The notes: a model not told the origin generated them from the sequence alone. DNA of 64,000 nt from Synergistaceae bacterium (GCA_017439345.1 JAFSJJ010000010.1:10442-74441); one strand, 5' to 3'; positions 8,766 through 45,800 are shown, counted from the stretch's first letter. Numbers and translations: made by a program.

Positions 8766-9701
8766 TTATTCAGTTATGCCCGTAGCTTGAGATGCAAGTT
8801 CCGGAGAAAAGCCCATTTCGAGCAGCTTTTGATAAATATTCCTGCTTGCCTCTGCTTTACCATCAAGCAAACCCTTAGCTATTCCTTCGCGTCTGCCTTC
8901 ACGCCTGCCTTTAGCTTCGCCTTTAGCTACCTGCCGTGAAAGAAAGTTATCCATTGTTACTTTGTCTCCTTTCTCGTAATCATAAAGAATTCTGTTTTGT
9001 GCATATTCAAAAGTTTTATCGCCTGTCAATGCCCTCATCAGCTTTAACAGGGAGTCAACGTGTTCAATCTCCCATTTTGAAGCCTTGTAGTTCTTAGTAA
9101 TTCTCTTCTGCCTGAAGTAATCTACGACGATCCTGAAATCACTCGTAAACTTCGCCGCTTGTTCGTCAGTGAGCCACGCAATTTCTATTATATTAAGTTT
9201 TGCATCGTTCACAAACGGCCTAAAGCTCTTGGGAATATCCAGACATTCAAAAAGTGTTCGGGGCTTCTTCCAGCATCTCATGCCGTAATATAACACGATT
9301 GTTACTACAGGATAAAATTTCGTGTTAAGAAGTCTTTTCACTTCCTCAGAGTCCTCTGCTTTCTTGGCTGCCTTTATATCATCATCGCGTCTGGTTATCT
9401 GTACCCGATAGTCTCCTCCCTCGTAACCTGCGACTCTGACCGGCATTGCTTTATCAATCGTGCTTTGGTTCTCAAGACCTAGAAGACAAAAAATTATTCC
9501 GCCCTTAGTCCATAATTTAACGGTGTCCCGTTCCTGCTCGTGTATCTCTCCTGATGACGAATAAACATTTCGAGTCCTGACATCCTGCAAGTCCTCAGGA
9601 GCTATTTTTTCATCAAGAGGCAGCAAACCGTTAATAATATCTGCAAAGACATCGTTATAATCTTCAAGTTTTTTCTCAAGTATATCTTTATCGTGAGTCA
9701 T
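8766..9701 (-). CDS. Rpn/YhgA-family recombination-promoting nuclease (putative transposase-like PD-(D/E)XK)
   Basis: 311 aa with an N-terminal DVFADIINGLL region and the family-typical C-terminal KGxxEG-type repeats (GEAKGRREGRREGIAKGLLDG). Confidence 0.7.
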   Translation of the reverse strand: MTHDKDILEKKLEDYNDVFADIINGLLPLDEKIAPEDLQDVRTRNVYSSSGEIHEQERDTVKLWTKGGIIFCLLGLENQSTIDKAMPVRVAGYEGGDYRVQITRRDDDIKAAKKAEDSEEVKRLLNTKFYPVVTIVLYYGMRCWKKPRTLFECLDIPKSFRPFVNDAKLNIIEIAWLTDEQAAKFTSDFRIVVDYFRQKRITKNYKASKWEIEHVDSLLKLMRALTGDKTFEYAQNRILYDYEKGDKVTMDNFLSRQVAKGEAKGRREGRREGIAKGLLDGKAEASRNIYQKLLEMGFSPELASQATGITE

Positions 9702-9766: not shown

Positions 9767-10948
9767 GTGAACATTTACCCGTTGAATATATCATCACAGC
9801 AGGACATCAATAACATATGCGCAAAGATTCAGACGGACTCAAGGGCATTGGCTTACTTGTCGCCTAAATATAAAATTCTGCACTTCTACGCTGAGAACAT
9901 AGACTACAGGGCAGCGGCTTTTCTCAAGCAGGAATTATTATCACGCGGCGGAGACACTATAGTTACTAAGCACGTAATAGACGGCAAAAGCTCATCAAGC
10001 AATATATTACTCATGGGAACAAGCTCGCAGATTAAGAGCCTGATTCAAAAATTATCTTCAATGGACTGCTGGGGACTGAAAGATTTACGCGAGAGTCTTT
10101 CACGTTCATTCACGAATATAAATATTAACAAATGGCACATCAACAGCAAAATAACTCTCGACAACGATAACACTAAATTAATGGCAATTATAAATCTTAC
10201 TCCGGACTCATTCTACGAGGGCAGCAGAGTCAACGAGTCTCAAATAATCAACACTGCACAGAAATTCTTGAACGAGGGCGCATATATTCTTGACATCGGG
10301 GCAGAGTCGACGCGTCCCGGAGCAGCTCAGGTTGACTCAGAAGAGGAAATTTCGCGGTTAATCCCTGCACTGAAAATTTTACGGCGTGAGTTTGGTGATA
10401 AATTAATAATTTCAGTCGACACTTACAAAGCACTCACAGCACGGTCAGCAATTGACTCAGGAGCAGACATAATTAACGACATAAGCGGCTTCTCACTTGA
10501 TAGGGACATGCTAACTACAATCGCAAAGTTAAACGTCCCGTATATACTCTCTCACATTGAAGGCACTCCATCTAACATGAAAGAATTTGAAGGCCATGAA
10601 GATATTATTAATACCCTGCAAGTTTACTTCACTGATAAAATAAACGCTCTCGAACAGGCAGGACTCAGACGTGAGAATATTATTCTTGATCCGGGCTTAG
10701 GCTTTGCTAAGTCAGAACACGACAACTTCATGATAATAAAGCATATCGAATCGCTAAAAGTTTTCGGGCTGCCAATCATGACAGGACACTCAAGAAAGAG
10801 ATTCACAGGTGATAAAAACGAAATTGCAGGGACTCTTGCCGTGAGTTCATTATTGGCTGGACGGGTGAGTCTCCTGCGTGTTCATGATGTCAGAGAAAAT
10901 TTGCTTGCTGTCTCAGTGAGTCAAAGTATTCATGAATCACAGTTTTGA
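9767..10948 (+). CDS. folP: Dihydropteroate synthase with an uncharacterised ~135-aa N-terminal extension
   Basis: From ORF 9719..10948; the likely start is GTG 9767 with GGAGGA 8 nt upstream. The pterin-binding domain begins near LMAIINLTPDSFYEGSR, followed by DIGAESTRPGA, DTYK, INDISG and GHSRK. Confidence 0.9.
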   Translation: MNIYPLNISSQQDINNICAKIQTDSRALAYLSPKYKILHFYAENIDYRAAAFLKQELLSRGGDTIVTKHVIDGKSSSSNILLMGTSSQIKSLIQKLSSMDCWGLKDLRESLSRSFTNININKWHINSKITLDNDNTKLMAIINLTPDSFYEGSRVNESQIINTAQKFLNEGAYILDIGAESTRPGAAQVDSEEEISRLIPALKILRREFGDKLIISVDTYKALTARSAIDSGADIINDISGFSLDRDMLTTIAKLNVPYILSHIEGTPSNMKEFEGHEDIINTLQVYFTDKINALEQAGLRRENIILDPGLGFAKSEHDNFMIIKHIESLKVFGLPIMTGHSRKRFTGDKNEIAGTLAVSSLLAGRVSLLRVHDVRENLLAVSVSQSIHESQF

Positions 10949-10952
10949 TTTA

Positions 10953-12091
10953 TTAATGTGAGAACTTGTGCCTAATCCAGAACCAAGTATATTTAATCAA
11001 GTTAAGAACTGGTATTTTATTTATGACCCGATACTTAAATGATGCAAAGATTCTCTGAAGCAAAGGCTTGTTTAAACGTTCGGTTAATAAATCTATATTA
11101 GCTGTCGTCTTATCTGCAAGAATGTCTATTAATTCACTGTGAGTTATATCTCTTCCCCATTCAGCTGCGAGAAATGTATTCCAGTATAATTTTTCGTGTG
11201 CTGCTCCTGTGAAGACTTTCCACGGCTTGGGGACTGCGTACATATGCATTATGCAATGTGATAAATCTAGGTCTTTATTAAGAAGGTCATAGACATTGAA
11301 TCTGGGATCAATAAATTTTTTATCGCTTTCGAAAACAGAATTAATTGCATCCTGGTCCGGGAAGAGCGGCATATGACGATAATACATAAGCCATTCAAGG
11401 ATAATTTTGCTGAAATCTCCTCTTTCGCGAATTTTTTTGAGATTCATAACAGTTACTCCGGAATTAATATATTGTGTTCTGTTGCAGCCTAAAAATTCTA
11501 CATGCAGTGATAATTCTGATAAAAATTTCTGGCTGTGAACCCTGTCTAATACGCCGGCAATGCTTTTATTCTCAAGATCGATGCTCCAGAGTTCGTTAAT
11601 ATCAAGATTTACGATTATGTCGCAGTCAATATAGATTATTTTGTCAAGTGCAGGCAAAGCTTCAGGGATAAACATTCTGTAAAGAGCTCCGACCGTCCAT
11701 TGTCCTGAAATATGCTTTATTGATTCGCTGATTCTTTTTTCATGCTCTGTTATGTCGATAAACTCTAAAGTCTGTGAAAAATTTTCTGCTGTCTTGATTA
11801 ATTTATTGCGGTTGTCCTGTGTTAAAGTCTCATCATGCAGAATATGAATTGTAACAGGATTATGAGTGTGCTGAAAAATTGAAGTGATTACTACGCCTGC
11901 ATTCTGTGAATAATTTCCTGAAGGGTCATAGAGTGCTAATGCTACGTGTATGCGTTCAAGTGTTTCATTAGGCTTTAAGGCACAATAACAGCGTTGGGCG
12001 TTGGGCGTTGGGCGTTGGGCGTTGGGCGTTGGGCGTTGGGCGTTGGGCGTTGGGCGTTGGGCGTTGGGCGAATTGTAAAGTTATTTTGCAT
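10953..12091 (-). pseudogene. GT8-family glycosyltransferase with no usable in-frame start (phase-OFF or frameshifted)
   Basis: The listed ORF 10953..11675 (DCDIIV, GT8 C-terminal half) continues open upstream to 12080, encoding ...NETLERIHVALALYDPSGNYSQNAGVVITS (the GT8 N-terminus). That stretch has no ATG/GTG/TTG. The upstream ATGs at 12091 and 11968 are both in the wrong frame. Confidence 0.7.
11991..12070. repeat. Perfect heptanucleotide tandem repeat, (GCGTTGG)x11 plus GCG
   Basis: Read directly from the sequence: 80 nt with an exact 7-nt period. The ORF-track entry 11994..12197 (GVGRWAL repeats) is its translation. Confidence 0.97.
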
Positions 12092-12100
12092 TCCTGTCAA
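12072..12100 (-). promoter_or_regulatory. Sigma70-type promoter, TTGACA-17 nt-TACAAT, facing the GT8 gene
   Basis: On the minus strand the -35 TTGACA is at 12100..12095 and the -10 TACAAT is at 12077..12072, with a 17-nt spacer. The same architecture is conserved in the paralogous copy at 17198..17226. Confidence 0.5.
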
Positions 12101-12158
12101 GCTCCCTGTTAATAATTTGCGTTTTTGTAATTACAACATAAAGCATTCATGCACTATT

Positions 12159-12269
12159 ATAAAAACGAAATTGCAGGGACTCTTGCTGGACGTGTGAGTC
12201 TCCTGCGTGTTCATGATGTCAAAGCTAATATGATTGCCGTCTCAGTGAGTAAAAGTATTCATGAATCAC
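12159..12269 (+). pseudogene. Relic duplicate of the folP 3' end (last ~37 codons, in-frame 18-nt deletion)
   Basis: Aligns with 10812..10940 with about 8 substitutions and one 18-nt gap. It translates as KNEIAGTLAGRVSLLRVHDVKANMIAVSVSKSIHESLF*, compared with KNEIAGTLAVSSLLAGRVSLLRVHDVRENLLAVSVSQSIHESQF* for folP. Confidence 0.85.
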
Positions 12270-12614
12270 TTTTCTAATTGACTCGCATTCTGACTCGGTC
12301 AATCTTGAGTCATTATTCTCGTCAAACATTTTATTGATTCCGCCTATGATTTCTTCAGCGAGTGAAGCAACTAAATCACTATCACCGGACATGCTTAATA
12401 TTTTTATGCCGTAATCGAAATCGCGTTTCAGGTTATCGAATTTTTCAGGGGTCGCAACAACTCTGCATTCATTCAGGGAGGATTCACGGACTCCGGGCTT
12501 CATGAGTTCCCATTTAAATTTTGCCTGAGGGTCAAAGCGGTTTGCAAGCTCCATTAATTCTTTGGCTCCTGATGAGATTTTCTTCTTGAACGTGTTAATT
12601 ATGTTCGCTGCCAT
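12225..12614 (-). CDS. Hypothetical small soluble protein (129 aa), last gene of the GTPase operon
   Basis: The ORF overlaps the upstream gene by 20 nt. I recognise no motif. Its final 15 codons are antisense to the folP-tail relic. Confidence 0.6.
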   Translation of the reverse strand: MAANIINTFKKKISSGAKELMELANRFDPQAKFKWELMKPGVRESSLNECRVVATPEKFDNLKRDFDYGIKILSMSGDSDLVASLAEEIIGGINKMFDENNDSRLTESECESIRKVIHEYFYSLRRQSY

Positions 12615-13449
12615 GTGATAAAGTTTTGTCTATTGACGGCGATACTACATCGTATTTTAAGACGCTGGAGTCTCTCGATGAAAAATGACGTTCCGGAAGT
12701 GCTTTCTTAATATCTTCTGTGAGTCCGTTGATAACTTCTCGGCGGTTGACCTCTTGAGCCTTCTGAATCTCTTGAGCCTTATCCCTGCCTCCAAAGACAT
12801 AACAGCCCGCGATAAAAACTCCTACAAGTACTGCAACACCTACTGTAACTGCTGCAATCTTCTTTACTTTACCTGAAGAGTTATCTTTATCATCATCAGC
12901 AAATGACTCTGTTTCTGTTATGTCAAAGACCCTGCCAATATTAATATATTGCTCCTCACCGTTACGCTTCGTCCACTTCAGAACTTTGCCTTTATGAAGC
13001 CAGCCGTTGTCCTCGAAATCTCCGCCGTCAGACTGAAGCCAGCTCATGAAAGCAGACTCGTCAAGTTTAACGCCTTCTGCTTCAGTGCCTTCGTTAATGT
13101 CTTGAAGATTATTACTCAGCCAATTTTCAACGTCCTCCCAGTGATCGCTAATCTTAATGAACGCTGAAGCTGCTTTGCTAATCTCTTCAATCGGGAAAAT
13201 TTCACAGAACGAGAATCTTATTGCTCGTCCCCTCTCGTCTCGTTTATGGCGGTCAAGACCTGAAGCTACGAGATAAATTTTTGCATTCTCAATGAACGAA
13301 CATACGCACTCTTCGCCTTCAAGAATGCTGCATTTCTGACGCAGGGGCCTGAAACCTTCATAATTGCTGACAGTACCTGAGCCTCCGTTGATAAAGACCC
13401 TGTAATCTACAAATCTTGTGCGCGTTACGAATCTGAAATTATCACTCAT
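12595..13449 (-). CDS. Hypothetical single-pass membrane protein (284 aa)
   Basis: Has GGGGGTG 8 nt upstream of the ATG. It has a ~195-aa N-terminal domain, one TM helix (IAAVTVGVAVLVGVFIAGCYVF) and a ~65-aa charged C-terminal tail. Confidence 0.7.
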   Translation of the reverse strand: MSDNFRFVTRTRFVDYRVFINGGSGTVSNYEGFRPLRQKCSILEGEECVCSFIENAKIYLVASGLDRHKRDERGRAIRFSFCEIFPIEEISKAASAFIKISDHWEDVENWLSNNLQDINEGTEAEGVKLDESAFMSWLQSDGGDFEDNGWLHKGKVLKWTKRNGEEQYINIGRVFDITETESFADDDKDNSSGKVKKIAAVTVGVAVLVGVFIAGCYVFGGRDKAQEIQKAQEVNRREVINGLTEDIKKALPERHFSSRDSSVLKYDVVSPSIDKTLSHGSEHN

Positions 13450-13453
13450 AGTT

Positions 13454-14437
13454 TTACACCCCCATTAATTCTTTTCCGCAGATTATTTCATTTCTGCTGC
13501 TTCCGGAAGATATTCCGCTGCGGACATATTTTGCGATGTCAGGCATGTTGTCAGGCGAGAAAAATTCCCAGTCCCAAACGCAAACAAAGTGAAACATTTT
13601 GCGCCATATACTTTTGCTGCGTTTCTGCTGCTTCCTGAACTGCTCGAATAAGAAGCTCATTGCGAATCTCAAAGGCTGGTCGGTGTATTCGGGACTAAAA
13701 GTTTTGCCGTTGACTTTCATGAAAACCTGCTCTACTGCTCTGCCGCCTGCTGTCTTTAAATAGCTGAATTTGACATTGCCCATCGTGTTAATCGGGACTA
13801 TTGCAATTGCCAGCTTGCCTTTATAAGTTTCCTGTCCCATTTTGATTGTGTCATGAAAAGCATTCTTGACTGCCTGCTTCAATGCCTGCTGAGAGCTCCA
13901 GCTTTCCATATACTTTTCGCACTTAATCGGCACGAGCAGAATTAATCTCTCCTGCTTGTCTGATTCTCCGATTACTTCTTTTATCATGAGTTCGACATCT
14001 CTAATAGCTGCCTGCTCTGCATATTTCCCGCCTTGTTCCATTAAGTAGGGTGTATCGACTGCGACTATAAACACCAAAGACTGCTTCATTAACTTGATGA
14101 CTTGATTATAGTCTTGATCTGCTGCACTGCGAGCTATCCATCTTCCGGGGAAATCAAAGAATCTCACGGGCATAATGTTTTTATTACCCTTAATCTTGAA
14201 ATCGAAGGAAGTCATGTCTTCAGTATTCTTGACTTCACTGATATTCAATGTGCTAGGGTTTGCTGATTCCTTGAGTCTCTGATAAGCGTCCTCAAGAATG
14301 CCAAATGTCCTTCTGTCAGGGTAAAACGTTCCGGGTATCATGCTCTCAAGCTCTCTGTTCATGCAGGCAAGCATTGAAGTTTTGCCCGAACCCGAAGGCC
14401 CAAGCATTGTGAATATTAACGGTTTTGTCTCTGCCAT
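13454..14437 (-). CDS. P-loop GTPase-like protein (327 aa, TRAFAC-type motifs)
   Basis: Walker A/G1 is MLGPSGSGKTSML and G3/Walker B is RFFDFPGRW. There is no canonical NKxD; LVPIKCEKY is a possible G4 variant. Confidence 0.8.
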   Translation of the reverse strand: MAETKPLIFTMLGPSGSGKTSMLACMNRELESMIPGTFYPDRRTFGILEDAYQRLKESANPSTLNISEVKNTEDMTSFDFKIKGNKNIMPVRFFDFPGRWIARSAADQDYNQVIKLMKQSLVFIVAVDTPYLMEQGGKYAEQAAIRDVELMIKEVIGESDKQERLILLVPIKCEKYMESWSSQQALKQAVKNAFHDTIKMGQETYKGKLAIAIVPINTMGNVKFSYLKTAGGRAVEQVFMKVNGKTFSPEYTDQPLRFAMSFLFEQFRKQQKRSKSIWRKMFHFVCVWDWEFFSPDNMPDIAKYVRSGISSGSSRNEIICGKELMGV

Positions 14438-14479
14438 AACGTTAACTCCTTTGTTAGTAGAATCTTTTCGCTGAGATAA

Positions 14480-14647
14480 TTACTTGCTTTGTTTAAGTAT
14501 CCAAGCAATGACAAAAGCTGTTACTGCTGAAGCTAGTGCTGAGGCCAAGAGCCACATCACTTTTTCTAAATTGCCTAAACTATTTTCCGCAAGCAAAACA
14601 AACCAAGAAGTCCCGCATAGAAGAAAAATAATACACACACAATCCAT
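14480..14647 (-). CDS. Possible small hydrophobic protein (55 aa); an alternative 25-aa ORF runs from ATG 14652
   Basis: Below the ORF-track cutoff. Hand translation gives MDCVCIIFLLCGTSWFVLLAENSLGNLEKVMWLLASALASAVTAFVIAWILKQSK. It fills the only gap in the operon. GGGGG lies 10-15 nt upstream of the two ATGs. Confidence 0.3.
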   Translation of the reverse strand: MDCVCIIFLLCGTSWFVLLAENSLGNLEKVMWLLASALASAVTAFVIAWILKQSK

Positions 14648-14659
14648 TTCATATTGTAT

Positions 14660-16933
14660 TTACCCCCTGAACATAAAATTAGATGAACTCAATAACGCAG
14701 CAATCTCACTCAACGGAGCGCGTAAAGCTGCACATAATTCATTTCGTCTTTGTGAAGCCCCGTACTCTTCAGGCCACACTTTCCCCCTGATTGACCGGTA
14801 AAATCTCCGCCACTGATTTTGAAGACTCTTGCCTTCAAGTTGATTTGATCTGATGACTATATCTTTGAATTCTTCGGCCGCTGCAAAAGCTGCCTTGTTA
14901 GGTTCCGAGTATATATCTGCAAATGTCCTGTAAATCTCGTTAATCGTTTCGTAATAAAGAGCCTCAAGCAGTGTTATTGTCTCGCCGATGTCTGACAAGG
15001 GAACAACGTATTCTTGTGACGCTTTGTCTAACGGGTCAAGCCTGTTGAGCGAACTTCTGAGCCTGTGCTGAATAAAGCTCCTGTAATTCATTGAGTAGCC
15101 GAATAACAGGTTAAAGCCTTCAATGAGGGCGGGGACATCGTCTTTGAATTCTGATTTATCAAGGAAATTTATAATCTCGTTGAGCAGTCTGTAATCTCTG
15201 ACTCCGAAAGCCTTTTCAAGTCTGCCGGTATCTGCAAGAATCTCGCATATTTTATTCTTCATGTCGAGCAGCACAGCATTTAATGTAACGTCTAAATTTT
15301 CCTGAAGCTGTGAACTTAATTCCGTCCTGAGCAGGTGCATTGCATTTTCACGGGCCGTCTGAAGTCCTCCTGCCATGTTTGAAGTTTCCTTGATGTAGCT
15401 AGTGTAGTTTGCAGCCAAATCAAATTCTTCTGCCGACTTTAGAATCTCCATGATCTTTTCTTTAAATGGTATGCAGTCATCATCGCGCTTGACTCTTAAT
15501 TCTGAACCTTCGCCGACAACTTCTTGAAGCTTCATCCGCAGTTTGTTCCATAAGTCGTCCCAGAGGTCGTCAAATTTTCCGCTGTCCCTCTCTGAGTTAG
15601 AGTCATCACGCAAGAGCCACATAGCTTTATCCGTAATATCTTTGATGTCTGATAACAGCTTGTTCAAGAGTTCCTGAAGATTTTTCGCGTACTCTAAATC
15701 ATTGCGTTCAATATTGGCTGCGAGAAACTCTAATGCCTTATCAATTAATTTCTGTGAGACTTCATCAGGATTAGTGCAGTCTACGATAACAGAGTCAGAC
15801 ACTTTGATTTGAGCACTTGACATGTACTTTTGCATTAACTCGCACTGAGGCATATTCTCCGCTCCAGGTCTTGAGTCGTGGTTGAATACCCAGAATGACC
15901 AGCGTTCTATAGGAAGTTTTTCACCGAGCGCACGTTTTGCCTGACTATATAAATGAATCTCGTTATCCTGCCAGGCTGCTCCGGTATTTGAGGGCTTTGA
16001 CAGAAAGAAGACTAAATCAACCTGATCGCTCAATGCAGATACGACTCTTTTAACGTCTCCGATTCGAGTGTCTCCGAGTCCCGGCAGGTCTATTAATCTC
16101 AATGCGTTTACGTCAGTGTTAGGGAACTTGCAGAAAATTTCTACCCGGTCAACTGCTGCGTGTTTGAAAAATACTCTTTCACCCTTTGCGTTATCTTGAG
16201 CTACGTATTCGCGTATTTGTTCCCGTGATATTCTTAGCGGCGGCTTGTCTAAGTACTCCTGATACTGGCTCAAGTGGTCTTGTAAGTCCTTCAGGTGTTC
16301 TAAGTGCAGATTCATTTGAGTTATATATTCAGGGCTTGCCTTCAACGTTCCAGGCTCAGGGATATTTTGAGTCTTGAACTCTGCAACGCTTGACGGAGGG
16401 AATAAATCAATTTTATGCTGCTGAAGGTCTGCAAAGTAAGGCTCGATGTTCTCAGATATAAAGCGTCTCTCAGTCAGAAAATTTACTACTGCATAGGCTT
16501 CACTTGCTGAAGGGTCGTTAATTATATCGCTTCGGACTCCTGTGCAGAATGCCAAATTTCCGTCCGGTATCTCCTGAGCACTTAGTCCCGTTATCGTCTG
16601 TAAGAGTCTGCTCTTGCCCTGTCTAGCTCTGCCGATTACTGCGATGTTAAGGGTTCTGCGTGAGAGTCTTGCTGCTATGTTGTGCAAGTCCGCCGTTAAC
16701 CAGCTGCCTTCGTTGATTATGTGTTCCGATGAGTTCACTGTCTTGAAGAGTTCCGCAAGGTTTCCTGATTCTGAGTCTGACTCTGAGTCTATGTCCCTGT
16801 TATATTTCCTGCATAAGTTCGAGAATTCCTCAAACTTTGAGAGTACCCGCGATAATTTCTCTCTTGACTGGGTAATCTTCTCTGCAAGAGGCGCGCGCTG
16901 ATTGATAATGCTCTCGATGAAGTCCTGTCTCAT
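14660..16933 (-). CDS. Dynamin-family large GTPase (bacterial dynamin-like protein, 757 aa)
   Basis: G1 is IAVIGRARQGKSRLLQTITG and G3 is LRLIDLPGLGDT. It has a long helical C-terminal half (~400 aa) and an N-terminal acidic/Ser stretch, DIDSESDSESG. Confidence 0.85.
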   Translation of the reverse strand: MRQDFIESIINQRAPLAEKITQSREKLSRVLSKFEEFSNLCRKYNRDIDSESDSESGNLAELFKTVNSSEHIINEGSWLTADLHNIAARLSRRTLNIAVIGRARQGKSRLLQTITGLSAQEIPDGNLAFCTGVRSDIINDPSASEAYAVVNFLTERRFISENIEPYFADLQQHKIDLFPPSSVAEFKTQNIPEPGTLKASPEYITQMNLHLEHLKDLQDHLSQYQEYLDKPPLRISREQIREYVAQDNAKGERVFFKHAAVDRVEIFCKFPNTDVNALRLIDLPGLGDTRIGDVKRVVSALSDQVDLVFFLSKPSNTGAAWQDNEIHLYSQAKRALGEKLPIERWSFWVFNHDSRPGAENMPQCELMQKYMSSAQIKVSDSVIVDCTNPDEVSQKLIDKALEFLAANIERNDLEYAKNLQELLNKLLSDIKDITDKAMWLLRDDSNSERDSGKFDDLWDDLWNKLRMKLQEVVGEGSELRVKRDDDCIPFKEKIMEILKSAEEFDLAANYTSYIKETSNMAGGLQTARENAMHLLRTELSSQLQENLDVTLNAVLLDMKNKICEILADTGRLEKAFGVRDYRLLNEIINFLDKSEFKDDVPALIEGFNLLFGYSMNYRSFIQHRLRSSLNRLDPLDKASQEYVVPLSDIGETITLLEALYYETINEIYRTFADIYSEPNKAAFAAAEEFKDIVIRSNQLEGKSLQNQWRRFYRSIRGKVWPEEYGASQRRNELCAALRAPLSEIAALLSSSNFMFRG

Positions 16934-17166
16934 GATAAATAAATCAATCCTTTCATGTTATGTGTGTGATGAGTGAATTAATGATCTCGAAATGTTCACA
17001 GCGAATCAAATGCATCTGGGTTAATGCATAAAATCAAATGTGAGCAGCCTTGTATTTCGTGAATGTAAATGTAAATTTGAATCGTGAAGAGCGTGTTAAT
17101 ATAAATACTGGTGTGAAAAATTTATTTTTATTTCGTTGAGTGTGATTTAATTCGTTTGAGTTCTCA

Positions 17167-17246
17167 GGCGTTAAGGCACAATAATAGCGTTGAGCAAAAT
17201 GTAAAATTATTCTGCATCCTTGTCAAGTTCTCCTTCATTAATGATT
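17167..17246. repeat. Direct repeat copy B of the promoter/leader element (single degenerate heptamer unit)
   Basis: GGCGTTAAGGCACAATAATAGCGTTGAGCAAAATGTAAAATTATTCTGCATCCTTGTCAAGTTCTCCTTCATTAATGATT aligns with copy A at 11971..12118. Confidence 0.8.
17198..17226 (-). promoter_or_regulatory. Sigma70-type promoter, TTGACA-17 nt-TACATT, facing the dynamin-like operon
   Basis: On the minus strand the -35 is at 17226..17221 and the -10 is at 17203..17198. This implies a leader of about 255 nt before ATG 16933. Confidence 0.5.
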
Positions 17247-17401
17247 AATAAATAATTTTCATTCAGTTTATTGAGTGATTATAACAAAAAATTTTTCTGC
17301 GTGAATGTTTTTATTTTTTCGTGAACGTTTATTAAAGCCCCTGTAAATTTGCTCTTACTTCTGAAATAATTATTATAGGATTTAATATTTAATCTGGAGG
17401 T

Positions 17402-18721
17402 ATGAGTCTTGTGTATAACTTGATCGTTTCCAAATTCGGCGGCAGTATAACGTGCAGTGCTGAGAAAATAAAACACTCTGTAGAAATCATCAGGTCAAAC
17501 CCTGCCCGGCGTTACATGATTGCTTCAGCTCCCGGAACAAATCCCCCTAATCATGGAATAACTGATTTGCTTTTCATGTCTCATTCGAGATTCTCAGACA
17601 ATAAAGATTATGAAGGACTGCTCGCGGAAATTGCAGATAGTTACAGAGCAATAATTGACGGTCTCGAGATAAATTTTGACATCGACTCTGAAATAGAGAA
17701 GCTGAGACAAGATTTGCTTGCAGGCCGTGAACTCGCTTATATAGGCAGCCGCGGCGAGTACATAATGGGTAAAATTCTAGCTGAGTTATTAGGCTGGACG
17801 TTTGTAGATGCAGCAGAGTTAATTTTCTTCAACGATGACGGTACGTTAAACGAGCCCAAGACATTTAGAACTGCAAACGAGAGACTCAAAAATATAGAAC
17901 ATGCAGTTATACCGGGTTTTTATGGCTCAATGCCTGACGGAAAAATTAAGACGTTCCCGCGCGGTGACGGCGATTCTTCAGGCGCTGTTATTGCCCGTGC
18001 AGTCAATGCAGATTTATTCGAGAAGTGGAGCGAAGTCAACAAAGTTTTTGCTATAGATACTGACGTGATTCCTGAGTCAAGACTCGTTAAATACATAACG
18101 TACAACGAGATTATAGAATTAAATTACATCAGGAAAACTATAATCCGTGACAGCGTTATATTCATGTTAAGAGAAGCAAATATCCCGATGAGAGTCAGCA
18201 GTATTTATGACGATGAAGGGACGTTGATAGGCTCAAGCATTCCAGAAGGCACAAGGAGCAGTACAGCAGCATGTATCAGCGGACGCAGAAATTTCAAGAT
18301 AATTCATATCGAGAAATATGGGCTTAACGAAATATTTGGGTTCGGTGAAAAATTGCTTGGAATATTCGCAAAGTACGGCGCAGCATGTGAACATTGTCTC
18401 TCAGGAGTTCATAAAATTGCTCTGGTAGTCAAAAATCCCATTTTCGACTTGAGATGCAATGCAATTATTGACGAGATAAAACGAGTCATCCAGCCTGATA
18501 CAATAAGACTCGATAAAGATTTATCACTCATTACAGTAATCGGCGAAGGCATGGGAACTGTCAGCGGCAAATTTGAGAAGATATTTCTTGCCCTGTGGAA
18601 GCCTAAAATCAACGTCAAAATGTTAGATCAGGGAGCGGACGACACTAATATAATTCTCGGAGTGTCTGATAAAGATTACGAGAACGCAATGAAGGCTTTA
18701 TATGACACGATTATAAAGTAA
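17402..18721 (+). CDS. lysC: Aspartate kinase
   Basis: 439 aa with IVSKFGGS at the N-terminus, an amino-acid kinase fold, and a C-terminal ACT-like pair (LITVIGEGM...). GGAGG lies just upstream of the ATG. Confidence 0.88.
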   Translation: MSLVYNLIVSKFGGSITCSAEKIKHSVEIIRSNPARRYMIASAPGTNPPNHGITDLLFMSHSRFSDNKDYEGLLAEIADSYRAIIDGLEINFDIDSEIEKLRQDLLAGRELAYIGSRGEYIMGKILAELLGWTFVDAAELIFFNDDGTLNEPKTFRTANERLKNIEHAVIPGFYGSMPDGKIKTFPRGDGDSSGAVIARAVNADLFEKWSEVNKVFAIDTDVIPESRLVKYITYNEIIELNYIRKTIIRDSVIFMLREANIPMRVSSIYDDEGTLIGSSIPEGTRSSTAACISGRRNFKIIHIEKYGLNEIFGFGEKLLGIFAKYGAACEHCLSGVHKIALVVKNPIFDLRCNAIIDEIKRVIQPDTIRLDKDLSLITVIGEGMGTVSGKFEKIFLALWKPKINVKMLDQGADDTNIILGVSDKDYENAMKALYDTIIK

Positions 18722-18956
18722 CGCTTTTATTATCATCATTATCATCATTGACTCAAGCCTCTGTGATTTTGATTTTCATGCTTTAATGAATTTCTTAATT
18801 CAGGAGGCATTTTTTATTTGCCTGTTAATGCGAAAGTTTTATTGAGTAGCTCTAACATAAAGTATTCATGCTAAAATTATTCATTCATATAATCATATAA
18901 TTAATAATTAAGTAGTACGCTACAAAAAATTTTGAGAGGAGAACAAATTCTTTCTT

Positions 18957-41455: not shown

Positions 41456-42892
41456 CTACATCATTGGCTGCCATCCTCCGCCCAGAGCCTTAAAGAGTGT
41501 TATCAAGTTCAGCATTCGTTGACCGTTGCTTGAAGCTAAATCGTTCTCGATAGAATTAACGCTTTCCATAGCATTTAAGACGCTGTTAAAGTCCGTAAGT
41601 CCCTGTTCATATTTATCTCTTGCAGTGTTCAAAGCGTCATGAGCGGAATTCAATGCACTCTGCAAACTCTGATTTCTGATTTCCTCCTGAACATTCGACG
41701 TTAAAGCATTCCTGACTTCTGATACTGCACTTAATACAGTTTTCTCATAGGCGGCAAGCATTTGCTCTTCTCTAGCTGTCTGAACCTTAATATTCTTTCT
41801 GATTTGACCTCCGTTAAATATAGGCCAGGATAATCTAGGCAAAAACGTTGAACCTATGCTGTGTCCCTCGAAAATAGTACTTGAATGCAGGCTGTCAAGA
41901 CCTATAGAGCCCGTTAATGTGATAGTCGGATAATAATCTTTCTGAGCGGCTTTCTTTCTTGAACGCTGGGCGGCTAAATTTCTTTCAGCGGCAATAATAT
42001 CCGGCCTCTGTCTTATAGTCTCTGCGGGAATACCGTTAAGCCTGTTTACGTCAACTTCAGGAAAAGAATTATTGTTATTTAACAGCTCGTTAATGCTTCC
42101 CGGAACTTCACCGGTTAATATAGCTAATGCATTCATGATTTCTTCAATCTGCTGCCTCAATGCCGGCAAAGTCGATTTAGTGCGCTCAAGGGTATATCTT
42201 GACTGTTTGACAGCGAGTTCATCTTTCAAGCCTGCGTCAAACTGTGATTGAGTAAGATTTAGCATATCCTGTTGAAGATTAATATTATTCTCGGCTATCT
42301 TGATACGTTCCTGAAAAGTTCTGAGATTAATATAATTTCCTGCGACTTCAGCAGAAAGACTTACCCAAGCATTATGAAGCGAGGCATATTCGGCTTCGTA
42401 GGCTGCTTTAGAGGCGTTGATGTTATCCTGTTTCTTGCCCCACAAGTCAAGCTCCCATGAAGCATCAAATCCTAAGTGATAATTATTCGAGCTTCCTGCA
42501 TTGGGAATATTTTTAGACGGCTCTGAATGCGTCCATGTCCCTGAACCGTCAACTCTAGGGGAAGCATCAGCCATTGAGAGACCTAATTGAGCGCGTGCTT
42601 CCTGAACTTTGGCTCTTGATGTCTGAATATCTTTGTTATTCGCAAATGCCCTGCCGATTAATTCTGTCAAAGTCGGATCATTGAAAGTCTCCCACCATTG
42701 AGCAAGAATGTTTATATTCTTGTCTTTACGTCCTGAGCTTTCGTTGATTAACTTATCCCATTTTGAGGGTGCAAAGTTAATTTTATCTGCACTTGTATAT
42801 TTCTGAACGAGTTCGAGCCAGTCATCTGCATATACAGTGTGTGTGTTCAATGTAAGTAAAATTACTAATGCTAAGATTGCTTTATTCGTCAT
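41456..42892 (-). CDS. Outer-membrane efflux factor (TolC/NodT family)
   Basis: From ORF 41456..42949; start moved to the Met before TNKAILALVILLTLNTHTVYA (signal peptide). It has two OEP repeats with coiled-coil segments. Confidence 0.85.
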   Translation of the reverse strand: MTNKAILALVILLTLNTHTVYADDWLELVQKYTSADKINFAPSKWDKLINESSGRKDKNINILAQWWETFNDPTLTELIGRAFANNKDIQTSRAKVQEARAQLGLSMADASPRVDGSGTWTHSEPSKNIPNAGSSNNYHLGFDASWELDLWGKKQDNINASKAAYEAEYASLHNAWVSLSAEVAGNYINLRTFQERIKIAENNINLQQDMLNLTQSQFDAGLKDELAVKQSRYTLERTKSTLPALRQQIEEIMNALAILTGEVPGSINELLNNNNSFPEVDVNRLNGIPAETIRQRPDIIAAERNLAAQRSRKKAAQKDYYPTITLTGSIGLDSLHSSTIFEGHSIGSTFLPRLSWPIFNGGQIRKNIKVQTAREEQMLAAYEKTVLSAVSEVRNALTSNVQEEIRNQSLQSALNSAHDALNTARDKYEQGLTDFNSVLNAMESVNSIENDLASSNGQRMLNLITLFKALGGGWQPMM

Positions 42893-45800
42893 CATCATCG
42901 TCATCATCTCCTTCGTCGTCATCGTCATAATTATAATCATAATCATCATGGCCGAACATTCGCGCTAATCCTGCCTTTAATTTCTCTCTGAAAGTCTGCA
43001 TCAACACGAATAATCCGGGAATTAGGAACACTCCGAACACTGTTGCTACAGTCATTCCGAACACCATAGTAGTACCGACATGAAGACGGCTTGCGGCACC
43101 TGCTCCAGTAGCAAATATCATAGGCAATGCACCCAAAACGCATGTAAAAGCAGTCATAAGGACGGATCTAAATCTTTCACGGGCAGCTTCGGCAGCAGCA
43201 TTCAAGATAGTTTGACCTCTTAATTCTCGTTCTTCTTTTGCAAATTCGATGATTAATATAGCGTTCTTGCTTGCGAGACCTACCAGAAGCAATAATCCTA
43301 ACTGAGTATATACGCTGATAGTGATACCCATTACGTAAATTCCGGCTAGTGCGCCTAAAATAGCTACAGGAAGCGAAAGCATAACTGCAAACGGAATGCT
43401 CCAGCTTTCGTATTGAGCAACGAGAAATAGAAATCCGAATAAGACTGCGGCTGTAATGACTATTATAAATTGACTGCCTTCTCTTTGTTCCTGGTAAGTC
43501 TGTCCTGACCACTGATAGGCATAACCTGCGGGAAGTGTTTTAGATAATTCCTGAATTTTTGCGATACCCTGACCGCTTGAATATCCAGGATTTAATGTAA
43601 TCATGACATCTGCGCAGGGATATAGATTAAATCTTGATACAGCTCTTGGTGCAGTTATTTCGCGAAGAGTTACGACACTGCTTACTGGAACCTGCTCGCC
43701 CCATATGTTCGGAATTGGAAGCCTGCCTATGTCGTCAACTGTATTTCTAAATGCCCAGTCGGCTTGAAGCATAACCCTGTTAATCTGCGAGCCTAAGTTA
43801 ATATCATTGACGTAAAGTGTTCCCAGATACATATATAACGTATCGAAAATAGTTCCTGTATTAACGCCCATACTTTCGGCCTTAGCTCTGTCAACGTCAA
43901 GAAATATATGCGGTGTGCTGGCATTGTAAGTCGAGAAAGCATACATGAATTCAGGAGCAGCGTTAATCTGCATAATGAAGTTCTGCAAAACTTTTTCGAG
44001 TTCCAGAGGGTCAAATCTTCCTACAGCCTGCAGCTTCATTTCAAGACCGTTCATCATGCCCAGACCAGGAACTCCTCCTTGAGCGAATATATTAACCTGA
44101 GCTTGAGGGAACTTGCTTGTTATCGCATTAGCCTGAGCCATTATAGAACTCTGTGATAATTCAGGAGTTTTTCTCTCGTCCCAGTCCTTCAGAGTCAAAG
44201 AGAATGCACCGGTATTTTCGCCTGCACCGCCTACAAAGCTGAAACCTTCAATGCCCATGTTATTCTTAACGCCGTCAATCTTTGCCAGAGCCGGAACGAT
44301 TTCGCTTACAAATTTAGAAGTCCTTGCTCCCGATGCACCTTCAGGAAGCTGTATAACTCCCATCAATGAGCCTTGATCTTCCTGAGGGATAAATTCTGAC
44401 GGAGTTATATCCATAATGTAATAAGATGCCCAGCCTACCAGAGCCAGAGATAATATAATTACTATCATACTTCTTGCGATTAACACAGAGATTTTCACGA
44501 ATATATTCGTACTGACATTCAATATAGCATTGAACCATGCAAGAGGCCCTCTAGTCTTAGGCTTTATATTAGTCAGCATATGGGCGCACATTGCAGGACT
44601 CAAAGTAAATGCAACTGTCGTAGAACATACTACGGCGAATGACATAGTAACTCCGAATTGTTTATAAATCTCGCTGGTAATTCCTCCCATGAAGGCAACA
44701 GGAACAAATATAGCCATGAATACCAAAGTAGTAGCAATCATAGGCCCGGAAACGTCAATCATTGCCCGTTCAGTAGCTGCCTTAGCGTCAAGCCCTTCAT
44801 GTTCCATTATGTAAAGCACTCTTTCAACAACGACAATAGCGTCATCAACGACAGTGCCTATGACCAGAACTAAGCCGAACAGGGTAAAAGTATTAATGCT
44901 GTAGTCCAGAACCGCAAGACTTATGAACGTAGCCAATAACGAGACAGGAATAGCAGCCGCCGGTACAAGAGTAACTCTCCAGTCCTGTAAAAATATATAG
45001 CAGACTAACACGACAAGAAAGAATGTTAATGCAAGGGTCTCTAATATTTCCTGAATAGATATTCTGACAAAATCTGTGCTGTCGTAAATTATCTCGAACG
45101 CAGTATCAGAAGGCATAGAATTTTTTGTTTCTTCCATGAACTTTTTAACGCCGTCCATAACGTCAAGAGCATTTGCGTCAGCTCCCTGAGACAAGAATAA
45201 AACAGTACATTCATCGCCGTTGTAAGTCGAATTCACTGAATATGACTCAGAGCCTAACTCAACCCTCGCTACATCTTTGAGCCTGACTACAGCACCTGTA
45301 TTACTGCGCTTTACTATTATATCCTCGAACTCTTCAGCAGCATTTAATCTGCCTTTAGCCACGAGTGAATAAACTATCGGGGTATTATTATCATATCTGG
45401 GACTTGAACCGATTGAACCCAGGGCAGCCTGCTTGTTCTGACTTTGAATAGCCGCACTGACATCTACAGGCGACATGTTCATACTTGATAATTTATCAGG
45501 GTCGAGCCATATTCTGACGCTGTACTTAGCTCCCATGACGTTGACGCTTCCCATACCGGGAATACGCTTTAACGAGTTCACAACGTTATTAACGGCATAA
45601 TCACTCAGGAATAATGCATCACGAGTTTTATTAGGTGAAATAACTGCAACGAAAGCCAGCATGTTCGAGAATGAGACCATAGCAGTTATACCCATTTGAT
45701 TAACTATTGCGGGAAGCTGAGCCGTAGCCTGATGAATTTTGTTCTGAACTTTGACAAGAGCCATATCTGAATTAGTGCCGGTCTCGAACGTTACGACAAG

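Follow-up and report, generated by a model that had tools for sequence, protein, structure and literature searches.

The DNA analysed here is a 64 kb stretch from a member of the Synergistaceae (the window; all coordinates refer to it), and the feature in question is the interval downstream of the dihydropteroate synthase gene folP. Our analysis supports two alternative gene cargos stacked in tandem at this place, between shared flanks: a GT8 glycosyltransferase gene in unit 1 (10812-12118) and a GTPase operon of five open reading frames (ORFs) in unit 2 (12159-17246). The identities of folP, GT8, the five-ORF GTPase operon, lysC and gyrA were confirmed by Pfam, and the closest homologs of the window folP are found in Synergistaceae. 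The features on which the argument turns, with lengths in nucleotides (nt) or amino acids (aa), are as follows.

9767-10948, plus strand: folP, dihydropteroate synthase, 393 aa (Pfam Pterin_bind, E = 7e-66; called at 393 aa in identical contigs)
10812-10948, plus strand: flank A, the functional final 137 nt of folP, a duplicated segment (direct repeat with 12159-12277)
10953-12091, minus strand: GT8 glycosyltransferase gene, which in this assembly is out of frame and so phase OFF (PF01501 and frame analysis)
11994-12070, minus strand: perfect heptanucleotide repeat (CGCCCAA)x11, 77 nt, in the 5' coding region of GT8 (Tandem Repeats Finder, 11.4 copies, 100% matches)
12072-12100, minus strand: TTGACA-17-TACAAT, a sigma-70-like pair enclosing the GT8 ATG and abutting the repeat (11 of 12 consensus positions)
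12089-12107, minus strand: Shine-Dalgarno sequence AGGGAG (12107-12102) and ATG (12091-12089) of GT8, conserved across homologous modules
12108-12158: segment j, remnant of the ancestral GT8-gyrA intergenic region, ending at a novel junction with A' (matches to the j motif of the relative L063)
12159-12277, plus strand: flank A', a degraded folP-tail relic shortened by an 18-nt deletion (repeat of 10812-10948)
17164-17240, minus strand: flank B', GT8 5'-end stub with an 18-codon ORF, MQNNFTFCSTLLLCLNA followed by a stop (alignment to copy A)
17278-17305, minus strand: candidate promoter P1 further upstream, TTCACG-16-TATAAT plus TG extension (10 of 12 consensus positions)

Both repeat pairs were recovered at the positions given in an earlier note on this DNA, and alignment, shuffling and core counts confirmed that they are real and above chance. 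Flanks A and A' are 100% identical over their initial 28 nt, followed by an 18-nt deletion in A' and then 95 nt at 87% identity; the final ~55 nt of A' are at the same time antisense coding sequence for the C-terminus of the 129-aa protein encoded by the last operon gene. The two right-flank copies (12111-11966 and 17240-17164, both on the minus strand) align over 81 nt at ~80% identity when the tandem repeat is collapsed. The local alignment score is 84; 500 shuffles gave 19.7 on average and 34 at most. Of their 26-nt core, GGCKTTAAGGCACAATAAYAGCGTTG, the 64 kb contain exactly two copies against an expectation of 0. The hexamer pairs described by the note are also present, TTGACA-17-TACAAT in copy A and TTGACA-17-TACATT at 17226-17198 on the minus strand of copy B (10 of 12 consensus positions). 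The note had named a dispersed intergenic repeat as the finding that would make the bracketing coincidental; within the 64 kb, the two copies of the right-flank core and the three of the j motif all lie at cassette borders. In related genomes, the GT8 5' module is also found elsewhere, where it heads GT8 paralogs.

The junction at 12158/12159 is crossed by several independent assemblies (L004, L005, L006, L010 and L013). A chimeric assembly of two strain haplotypes was ruled out by its presence in independent assemblies and in a divergent lineage (L063), and by the difference between A and A'. Every assembly of this species contains both units, and the structural heterogeneity anticipated within the species was not seen among them; they differ solely in the copy number of the heptamer, 8 or 11.

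This heptamer tract, which interrupts right-flank copy A and was absent from the earlier description, changes how the flank is to be read. The repeat pair and the hexamers hold up, yet the flank, regarded until now as promoter and leader, is the 5' end of the GT8 gene itself (Shine-Dalgarno sequence, ATG, heptamer repeat and ~9 codons), not simply promoter and leader. From the ATG at 12091, the gene reads MQNNFTI(RPTPNAQ)n. An intact GT8 protein of 374 or 381 aa results from 9 or 12 units; with 11 units, as in the window, a stop follows after 38 codons, and 8, 10, 11 or 13 units yield peptides of 31-45 aa. The 345 codons past the repeat are fully open down to the stop at 10953, align end to end with GT8 homologs and match PF01501 over 345 aa (E = 3.5e-37; score 128.8 bits, cut-off 24.3), covering profile positions 7-250 of 253, while the match to the lipopolysaccharide 3-alpha-galactosyltransferase equivalog lies far below its cut-off. 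In this frame, no ATG, GTG or TTG occurs past the repeat until codon ~105, inside the GT8 domain.

We propose that GT8 is a contingency gene, translated from the ATG at 12091 upstream of the perfect (CGCCCAA)n tract. Slipped-strand changes in n would shift the GT8 frame, with the gene ON for n divisible by 3 and otherwise OFF, and at n = 11 it is predicted to be OFF in this window. A perfect repeat whose unit is not a multiple of 3 indeed lies between the ATG and the GT8 domain, and its copy number differs between otherwise identical genomes: the metagenome assemblies L004 (16.7 kb), L005 and L006 are of the same strain and show 0 mismatches to the window, the sole difference being a 21-nt gap that corresponds to 8 units in place of 11. 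Both lengths fall in the same frame and are OFF, and the protein collection yielded no ON allele of this gene. A scan of JGI metagenomes with a degenerate pattern for the sequence upstream of the repeat gave no match and no further alleles.

The same arrangement recurs in a family of simple-sequence-repeat (SSR) GT8 genes. Thirteen SSR-type GT8 5' ends were collected from GTDB genomes and metagenomes, of which 12 are comparable (the 12 modules below); the remaining one, L066, ends at a contig edge. Their repeat units vary by locus (CGCCCAA, CGACCAA, GAGCAAC, CACAAGC, CACGAGC, CGCACAT, GGAATCA, CACACGA and the pentamer CACAG), and the N-termini of homologous GT8 proteins of other Synergistaceae decode as heptamer repeats, for example DQRPTTNDQRPTTN (CGACCAA) and RTTHNAQRTTHN (CGCACAA). 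A Shine-Dalgarno sequence and start codon upstream of the repeat are conserved across the modules, and the N-terminal peptide is conserved in homologs as well. In the SSR-type loci examined, the GT8 frame runs from the repeat to the conserved IHVALAVYDP strand without meeting a start codon (ATG, GTG or TTG), whereas GT8 homologs that lack a repeat start ~5 codons ahead of this strand. Eight intact GT8 loci in reference metagenome-assembled genomes (MAGs) could be scored from the start codon beside the Shine-Dalgarno sequence: two are ON and six are OFF, close to the 1:2 ratio that a three-state frame switch would give. One genome, Red_deer_1_mag_77, holds three GT8 paralogs with 5' repeats of their own (L020, GAGCAAC x10; L023, CACGAGC 4+4; L038, CACAG x5), a set that would allow combinatorial switching of surface glycans.

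Public assemblies tend to break at these repeats. The Logan contigs L010, L012 and L013 end within the repeat, the MAG contig L019 begins inside it, the scaffold L062 has a gap of Ns there (~2955), and the MEGAHIT contig L014 runs from the repeat into Illumina adapter sequence.

The sigma-70-like pair in front of the repeat is harder to place. The earlier note had taken it as an identical promoter driving both GT8 and the operon. This did not hold: because the start codon lies within the pair and none follows the repeat, the pair is not the promoter of a translated GT8 mRNA, which we take to be made from a promoter further upstream. In line with such a promoter, 9 of the 12 modules, copy B among them, have an extended -10 element (TGnTAnnnT) at a distance of 31-60 nt upstream of TTGACA, compared with 2.5 expected. 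TTGACA itself is invariant in 12 of 12 modules, though the start codon is offset by 0-15 nt and the surrounding sequence is unrelated, and in nine of the 12 a TAnAAT-like hexamer abuts the repeat at a spacing of 17-18 nt. The pair overlaps the first codons in most SSR-type GT8 genes (including L015, L020, L028, L038, L062, L063 and L070) and is missing from GT8 genes without a repeat. In L021 and L023 the spacing is 9 nt, and the TTG of TTGACA serves as start codon. As a whole, TTGACA-17-TAYAAT looks like a selected promoter with its +1 inside the repeat.

The second copy of this module now seems to serve a different gene set. Flank B' comprises a Shine-Dalgarno sequence (AAGGAG), TTGACA-17-TACATT, an ATG at 17217, one degenerate heptamer and ~28 nt of the sequence that follows; copy B is thus the stub of a GT8 gene, now heading the GTPase operon. 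Between the stub and the first operon gene lies a 230-nt leader (16934-17163, minus strand), contained in alignments of ~87-88% identity to L063 and L064. The captured GT8 promoter region most likely drives the operon. No minus-strand terminator was predicted between the operon and the co-directional GT8 gene downstream of it (12091-12225), and operon transcription may read through into GT8.

Comparison with relatives bore out the expectation that single cargos would be found at this locus. In L064, the true folP (94% nt identity to 10709-10951) converges directly on the GTPase operon without GT8, and at the far end of this operon the 230-nt leader occurs together with a GT8 stub retaining at least four perfect CGCTCAA units. 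In L003, whose folP is 92% identical at the aa level, folP likewise leads straight into the GTPase operon without GT8. The final operon gene overlaps the true folP tail in both. The more distant Synergistaceae L015-L018 (folP 58-61% aa identical) show the reverse, with folP converging on GT8 and no GTPase operon, and in L015-L017 the GT8 gene beside folP bears a repeat. L001 and L002 (folP 85% and 82% identical) have unrelated genes downstream of folP, and a folP scan of GTDB genomes returned no close relative. With the operon alone in L064 and L003 and GT8 alone in distant Synergistaceae, GT8 therefore appears to be the ancient neighbour of folP and the GTPase operon a newcomer that replaced the GT8 body.

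The right border of the locus was clarified by L063, and involves three further features.

17240-17300: segment j', corresponding to the left half of the ancestral intergenic motif (motif matching)
17411-18721, plus strand: lysC, aspartokinase, 436 aa from a GTG start at 17411 (bracketed by j' and the gyrA-upstream motif)
18838-18906: gyrA-upstream motif, made up of the ancestral intergenic region's right half and a partial j' duplicate (motif matching)

L063 is ~12% divergent from the window and contains 17290 to 12162 as one block of ~88% nt identity beside gyrA, followed by an intact segment j and a decayed Shine-Dalgarno/TTTACA stub fused to a queH-like ORF; unit 2 thus adjoins gyrA there, with no lysC, GT8 or folP at that position. 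The full j motif of L063 matches the window at 12130-12152, 17250-17286 and 18853-18881, and no other motif match was found at E <= 0.01. These matches place the ancestral right border at the gyrA-upstream region, with lysC inside a split and partly duplicated copy. Of the hotspot that the earlier note had drawn between folP and lysC, the folP flank is retained, but lysC is not a conserved right arm, since unit 2 of L063 abuts gyrA without it. In the window, lysC is bracketed by two ~30-nt copies of a motif (TTTATTGAGT..TAAC; 17263-17300 and 18838-18871) whose halves are contiguous in L063; given this contiguity in a lineage that lacks lysC, the gene's presence or absence here looks like the outcome of a separate insertion or deletion event at that one intergenic site. 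The relationship of j was recognised only through the intact motif of L063. A direct approach, through a ATTATAAAAA microhomology at j|A' and homology of j to 17263-17300, was dropped, as the pairwise alignment was no better than shuffles.

L063 also dates the stacking. Its A' relic and that of the window have a near-identical left end and derived substitutions in common (AAAGCTAATAT), none of which occurs in a functional folP; it follows that the junction j|A' predates the split between L063 and the window (~12% divergence). The stacking would thus be old, and the 18-nt deletion in A' is later than the junction. In addition, the operon boundary falls exactly at the folP stop codon in four of four lineages, as would be expected if the replacement occurred while that copy of folP was functional.

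Taken together, we infer the following order as the favoured one: replacement in a single-copy locus, and then additive recombination between a GT8 and an operon haplotype. The ancestral layout would have been folP converging on GT8, followed by the intergenic region and gyrA. In one lineage, the operon with its DO-GTPase and dynamin-like genes would have replaced the GT8 body from the folP stop codon to ~28 nt past the 5' repeat, leaving behind the stub (promoter, Shine-Dalgarno sequence, ATG and heptamers) that now heads the operon. Later recombination between GT8-bearing and operon-bearing versions may then have joined them head to tail through one illegitimate junction, j|A' at 12158/12159, which left the final 137 nt of folP, and likewise the GT8 5' end, in two copies.

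That the locus is an old additive fusion of two haplotypes, with the surviving GT8 switched by its repeat, is in our judgement probable, and several observations weigh against it. All alleles seen of this GT8 gene are OFF (8 and 11 units), with no ON allele in the protein collection. The TTGACA-17-TAYAAT pair is conserved as strongly as a real promoter, for which a frame-shift model does not account, and copy A is without a canonical extended -10 upstream. The direction and mechanism of the stacking are inferred, and the microhomology suggested at the junction does not reach statistical significance; the event being additive rather than a replacement, as the earlier note had it, agrees with the two cargos in tandem, while the route to them is our reconstruction. 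The allele lengths could also mean that GT8 is a dead pseudogene and its repeat a neutral microsatellite without switching, with four of four alleles OFF and no ON allele in public data. We regard this as very unlikely, with 345 codons open and aligned end to end with GT8 homologs, a perfect repeat tract, and a module that is kept with differing heptamers in many paralogs and lineages, ON and OFF mixed. A functional promoter of both cargos, with heptamers in a leader that act, if at all, on RNA or transcription, would explain the 11/12 and 10/12 consensus matches, the invariance of TTGACA despite the shifting start codons, the hexamer abutting the repeat at 17-18 nt and the absence of the element from repeat-less GT8 genes. 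Its transcript, however, would have neither Shine-Dalgarno sequence nor start codon, the first in-frame start lying 105 codons into the GT8 domain; L021 and L023, with their 9-nt spacing and TTG start, and the enrichment of upstream extended -10 promoters argue in the same direction, and we consider this reading doubtful.

A different order of events would begin with an in situ tandem duplication of the whole segment from the folP tail through GT8 and its 5' end to j, followed by replacement of the redundant second GT8 by the operon; L064 and L003 would then stem from later A x A' deletion. In its favour, a tandem duplication with a single new junction would give precisely this architecture, deletion between direct repeats of 119-137 nt would regenerate an L064-like locus, and folP of L003 ends in CACTTTTCTAA, as does relic A'. 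An operon boundary exactly at the folP stop, though, is expected only with a folP copy under selection at the time of replacement. The folP tails of L064 and L003 also lack the substitutions specific to the relic, so that the crossover would need to fall in the last ~45 nt or very early, and more events are needed overall. A duplication that came first is hence unlikely, and we retain replacement followed by haplotype fusion.

We also considered, as rather a long shot, that the 5' module (promoter, Shine-Dalgarno sequence, TTGACA-N17-TAYAAT and heptamers) is a portable selected unit and more than the head of a gene. Three cargos lie behind it: GT8, the GTPase operon and the queH-like ORF of L063. 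Were this true, an internal promoter firing into the repeat could set its mutability or add a transcriptional layer to the switch, and the module may act as a homology anchor for swapping and stacking cargos behind it. The conserved promoter-like pair abutting the repeat is in any case a concrete, testable question.

The operon of unit 2 consists of five genes.

14660-16933, minus strand: first operon gene, 757-aa dynamin-like GTPase (weak Dynamin_N and MMR_HSR1 matches)
14480-14647, minus strand: 55-aa hydrophobic small ORF (ORF list; uncalled by public gene callers)
13454-14437, minus strand: 327-aa GTPase of the DO-GTPase2 family (PF19993, 46.7 bits, cut-off 27)
12595-13449, minus strand: 284-aa protein with one hydrophobic segment, VKKIAAVTVGVAVLVGVFIAG (ORF list; no family match)
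12225-12614, minus strand: final operon gene, 129-aa protein (ORF list; no Pfam match)

The 284-, 129- and 55-aa proteins have no Pfam or NCBIfam match, and no GAP1 component was detected. Homologs of the 757-aa GTPase form a gradient within Synergistaceae and then drop to ~35% identity in cyanobacteria. Compared with L064, the 757-aa protein is 86% identical at the aa level and the other operon genes 58%, 59% and 32%, and gene content differs; the operon appears to be mosaic or fast-evolving. At the nt level, L064 matches the window at 87% in the 757-aa gene and ~67% in the middle genes. In L003, folP is ~90% nt identical and the adjacent operon genes (12159-13095) only ~71%. In L063 (9811-12075), the 757-aa gene is split over three frames (called as 430 + 88 + 143 aa), through either pseudogenisation or assembly errors. 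A terminator-like hairpin with a T-run lies on the plus strand just past the relic folP stop codon, inside the 129-aa gene (12291-12312); in the operon-only haplotype it probably once served as the folP terminator.

Unit 2 as a recognisable mobile element was rejected: its DNA matched no plasmid, the 757-aa protein matched no phage, and the only homologs of that protein on plasmids, ~32% identical, are cyanobacterial. A PADLOC assignment (mad8, LeoBC) gave marginal matches only (E ~ 2e-3) and was not used. The gene lists of identical contigs contain no integrase within ~10 kb on either side, only a YhgA-like ORF. The cassette borders are gene fragments and not attC-like sites, which sets the locus apart from an integron-like array. 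An Rfam search of 9-20 kb found nothing, and hence no riboswitch or known RNA in the flanks.

The YhgA-like ORF (Pfam Transposase_31, Rpn-type) lies directly upstream of folP at 8766-9701 on the minus strand; it is also called in the same-strain contig L004, and an ORF of similar size occupies this position in L001. Rpn nucleases have been reported to promote RecA-independent recombination, and such an ORF could bear on a locus with illegitimate junctions. Elsewhere in the window, Tandem Repeats Finder reported an imperfect (TCA)n / 12-mer tandem repeat at 42886-42949.

We found no report of SSR phase variation in Synergistetes/Synergistota in the literature. The strategy is documented mainly in a few pathogens, and the present loci give sequence-level evidence that gut and rumen Synergistaceae may use SSR contingency genes to vary surface glycosylation, possibly with several independently switchable GT8 paralogs per genome. 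In annotation, repeat-type GT8 genes are routinely miscalled as truncated ORFs. The locus may further show how a conflict operon settles into a core locus, having replaced the body of a contingency gene, kept its expression signals and later been stacked with the original gene.

The SSR-GT8 family of Synergistaceae belongs to a known class, the simple-sequence-repeat contingency genes. SSR contingency glycosyltransferases of LOS/LPS and protein glycosylation in Haemophilus influenzae and Neisseria include the GT8 enzyme LgtC (lgtC) and lic2A, with tetranucleotide repeats, and the Neisseria pglE gene with the heptanucleotide CAAACAA. As in those loci, a perfect repeat with a unit not divisible by 3 lies in the 5' coding region of a glycosyltransferase gene, the reading frame is set by copy number, copy number varies between otherwise identical genomes, and several paralogs per genome each have a repeat of their own. 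In contrast to them, the window GT8, a predicted switch, comes from the phylum Synergistota, the unit sequence differs from paralog to paralog (with CGCACAA also among the units), and the repeat is always preceded by a conserved module of Shine-Dalgarno sequence and TTGACA-N17-TAYAAT.

The stacking rearrangement itself is ordinary. Homology-facilitated illegitimate recombination, with its tandem duplication junctions, is a general mechanism, and the window resembles its products in having one novel junction that joins the end of a segment to its own beginning, with shared homology on the other side that gives additive rather than replacement integration. It departs from that model in that the junction microhomology is not significant and donor and recipient cannot be assigned.

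The DO-GTPase2 family has been described as the core of predicted membrane-proximal conflict systems (Kaur, Burroughs, Iyer, Aravind, eLife 2020, PMC7159879). Unlike the systems described there, the window operon has no detected GAP1 and no recognisable effector domain, and the partner is a 757-aa dynamin-like GTPase; one DO-GTPase is present in the window operon and two in L064. In common with them, its 327-aa protein matches DO-GTPase2 above the cut-off, small transmembrane partners are encoded alongside, and a constant core is combined with accessory genes that vary strongly between close relatives.

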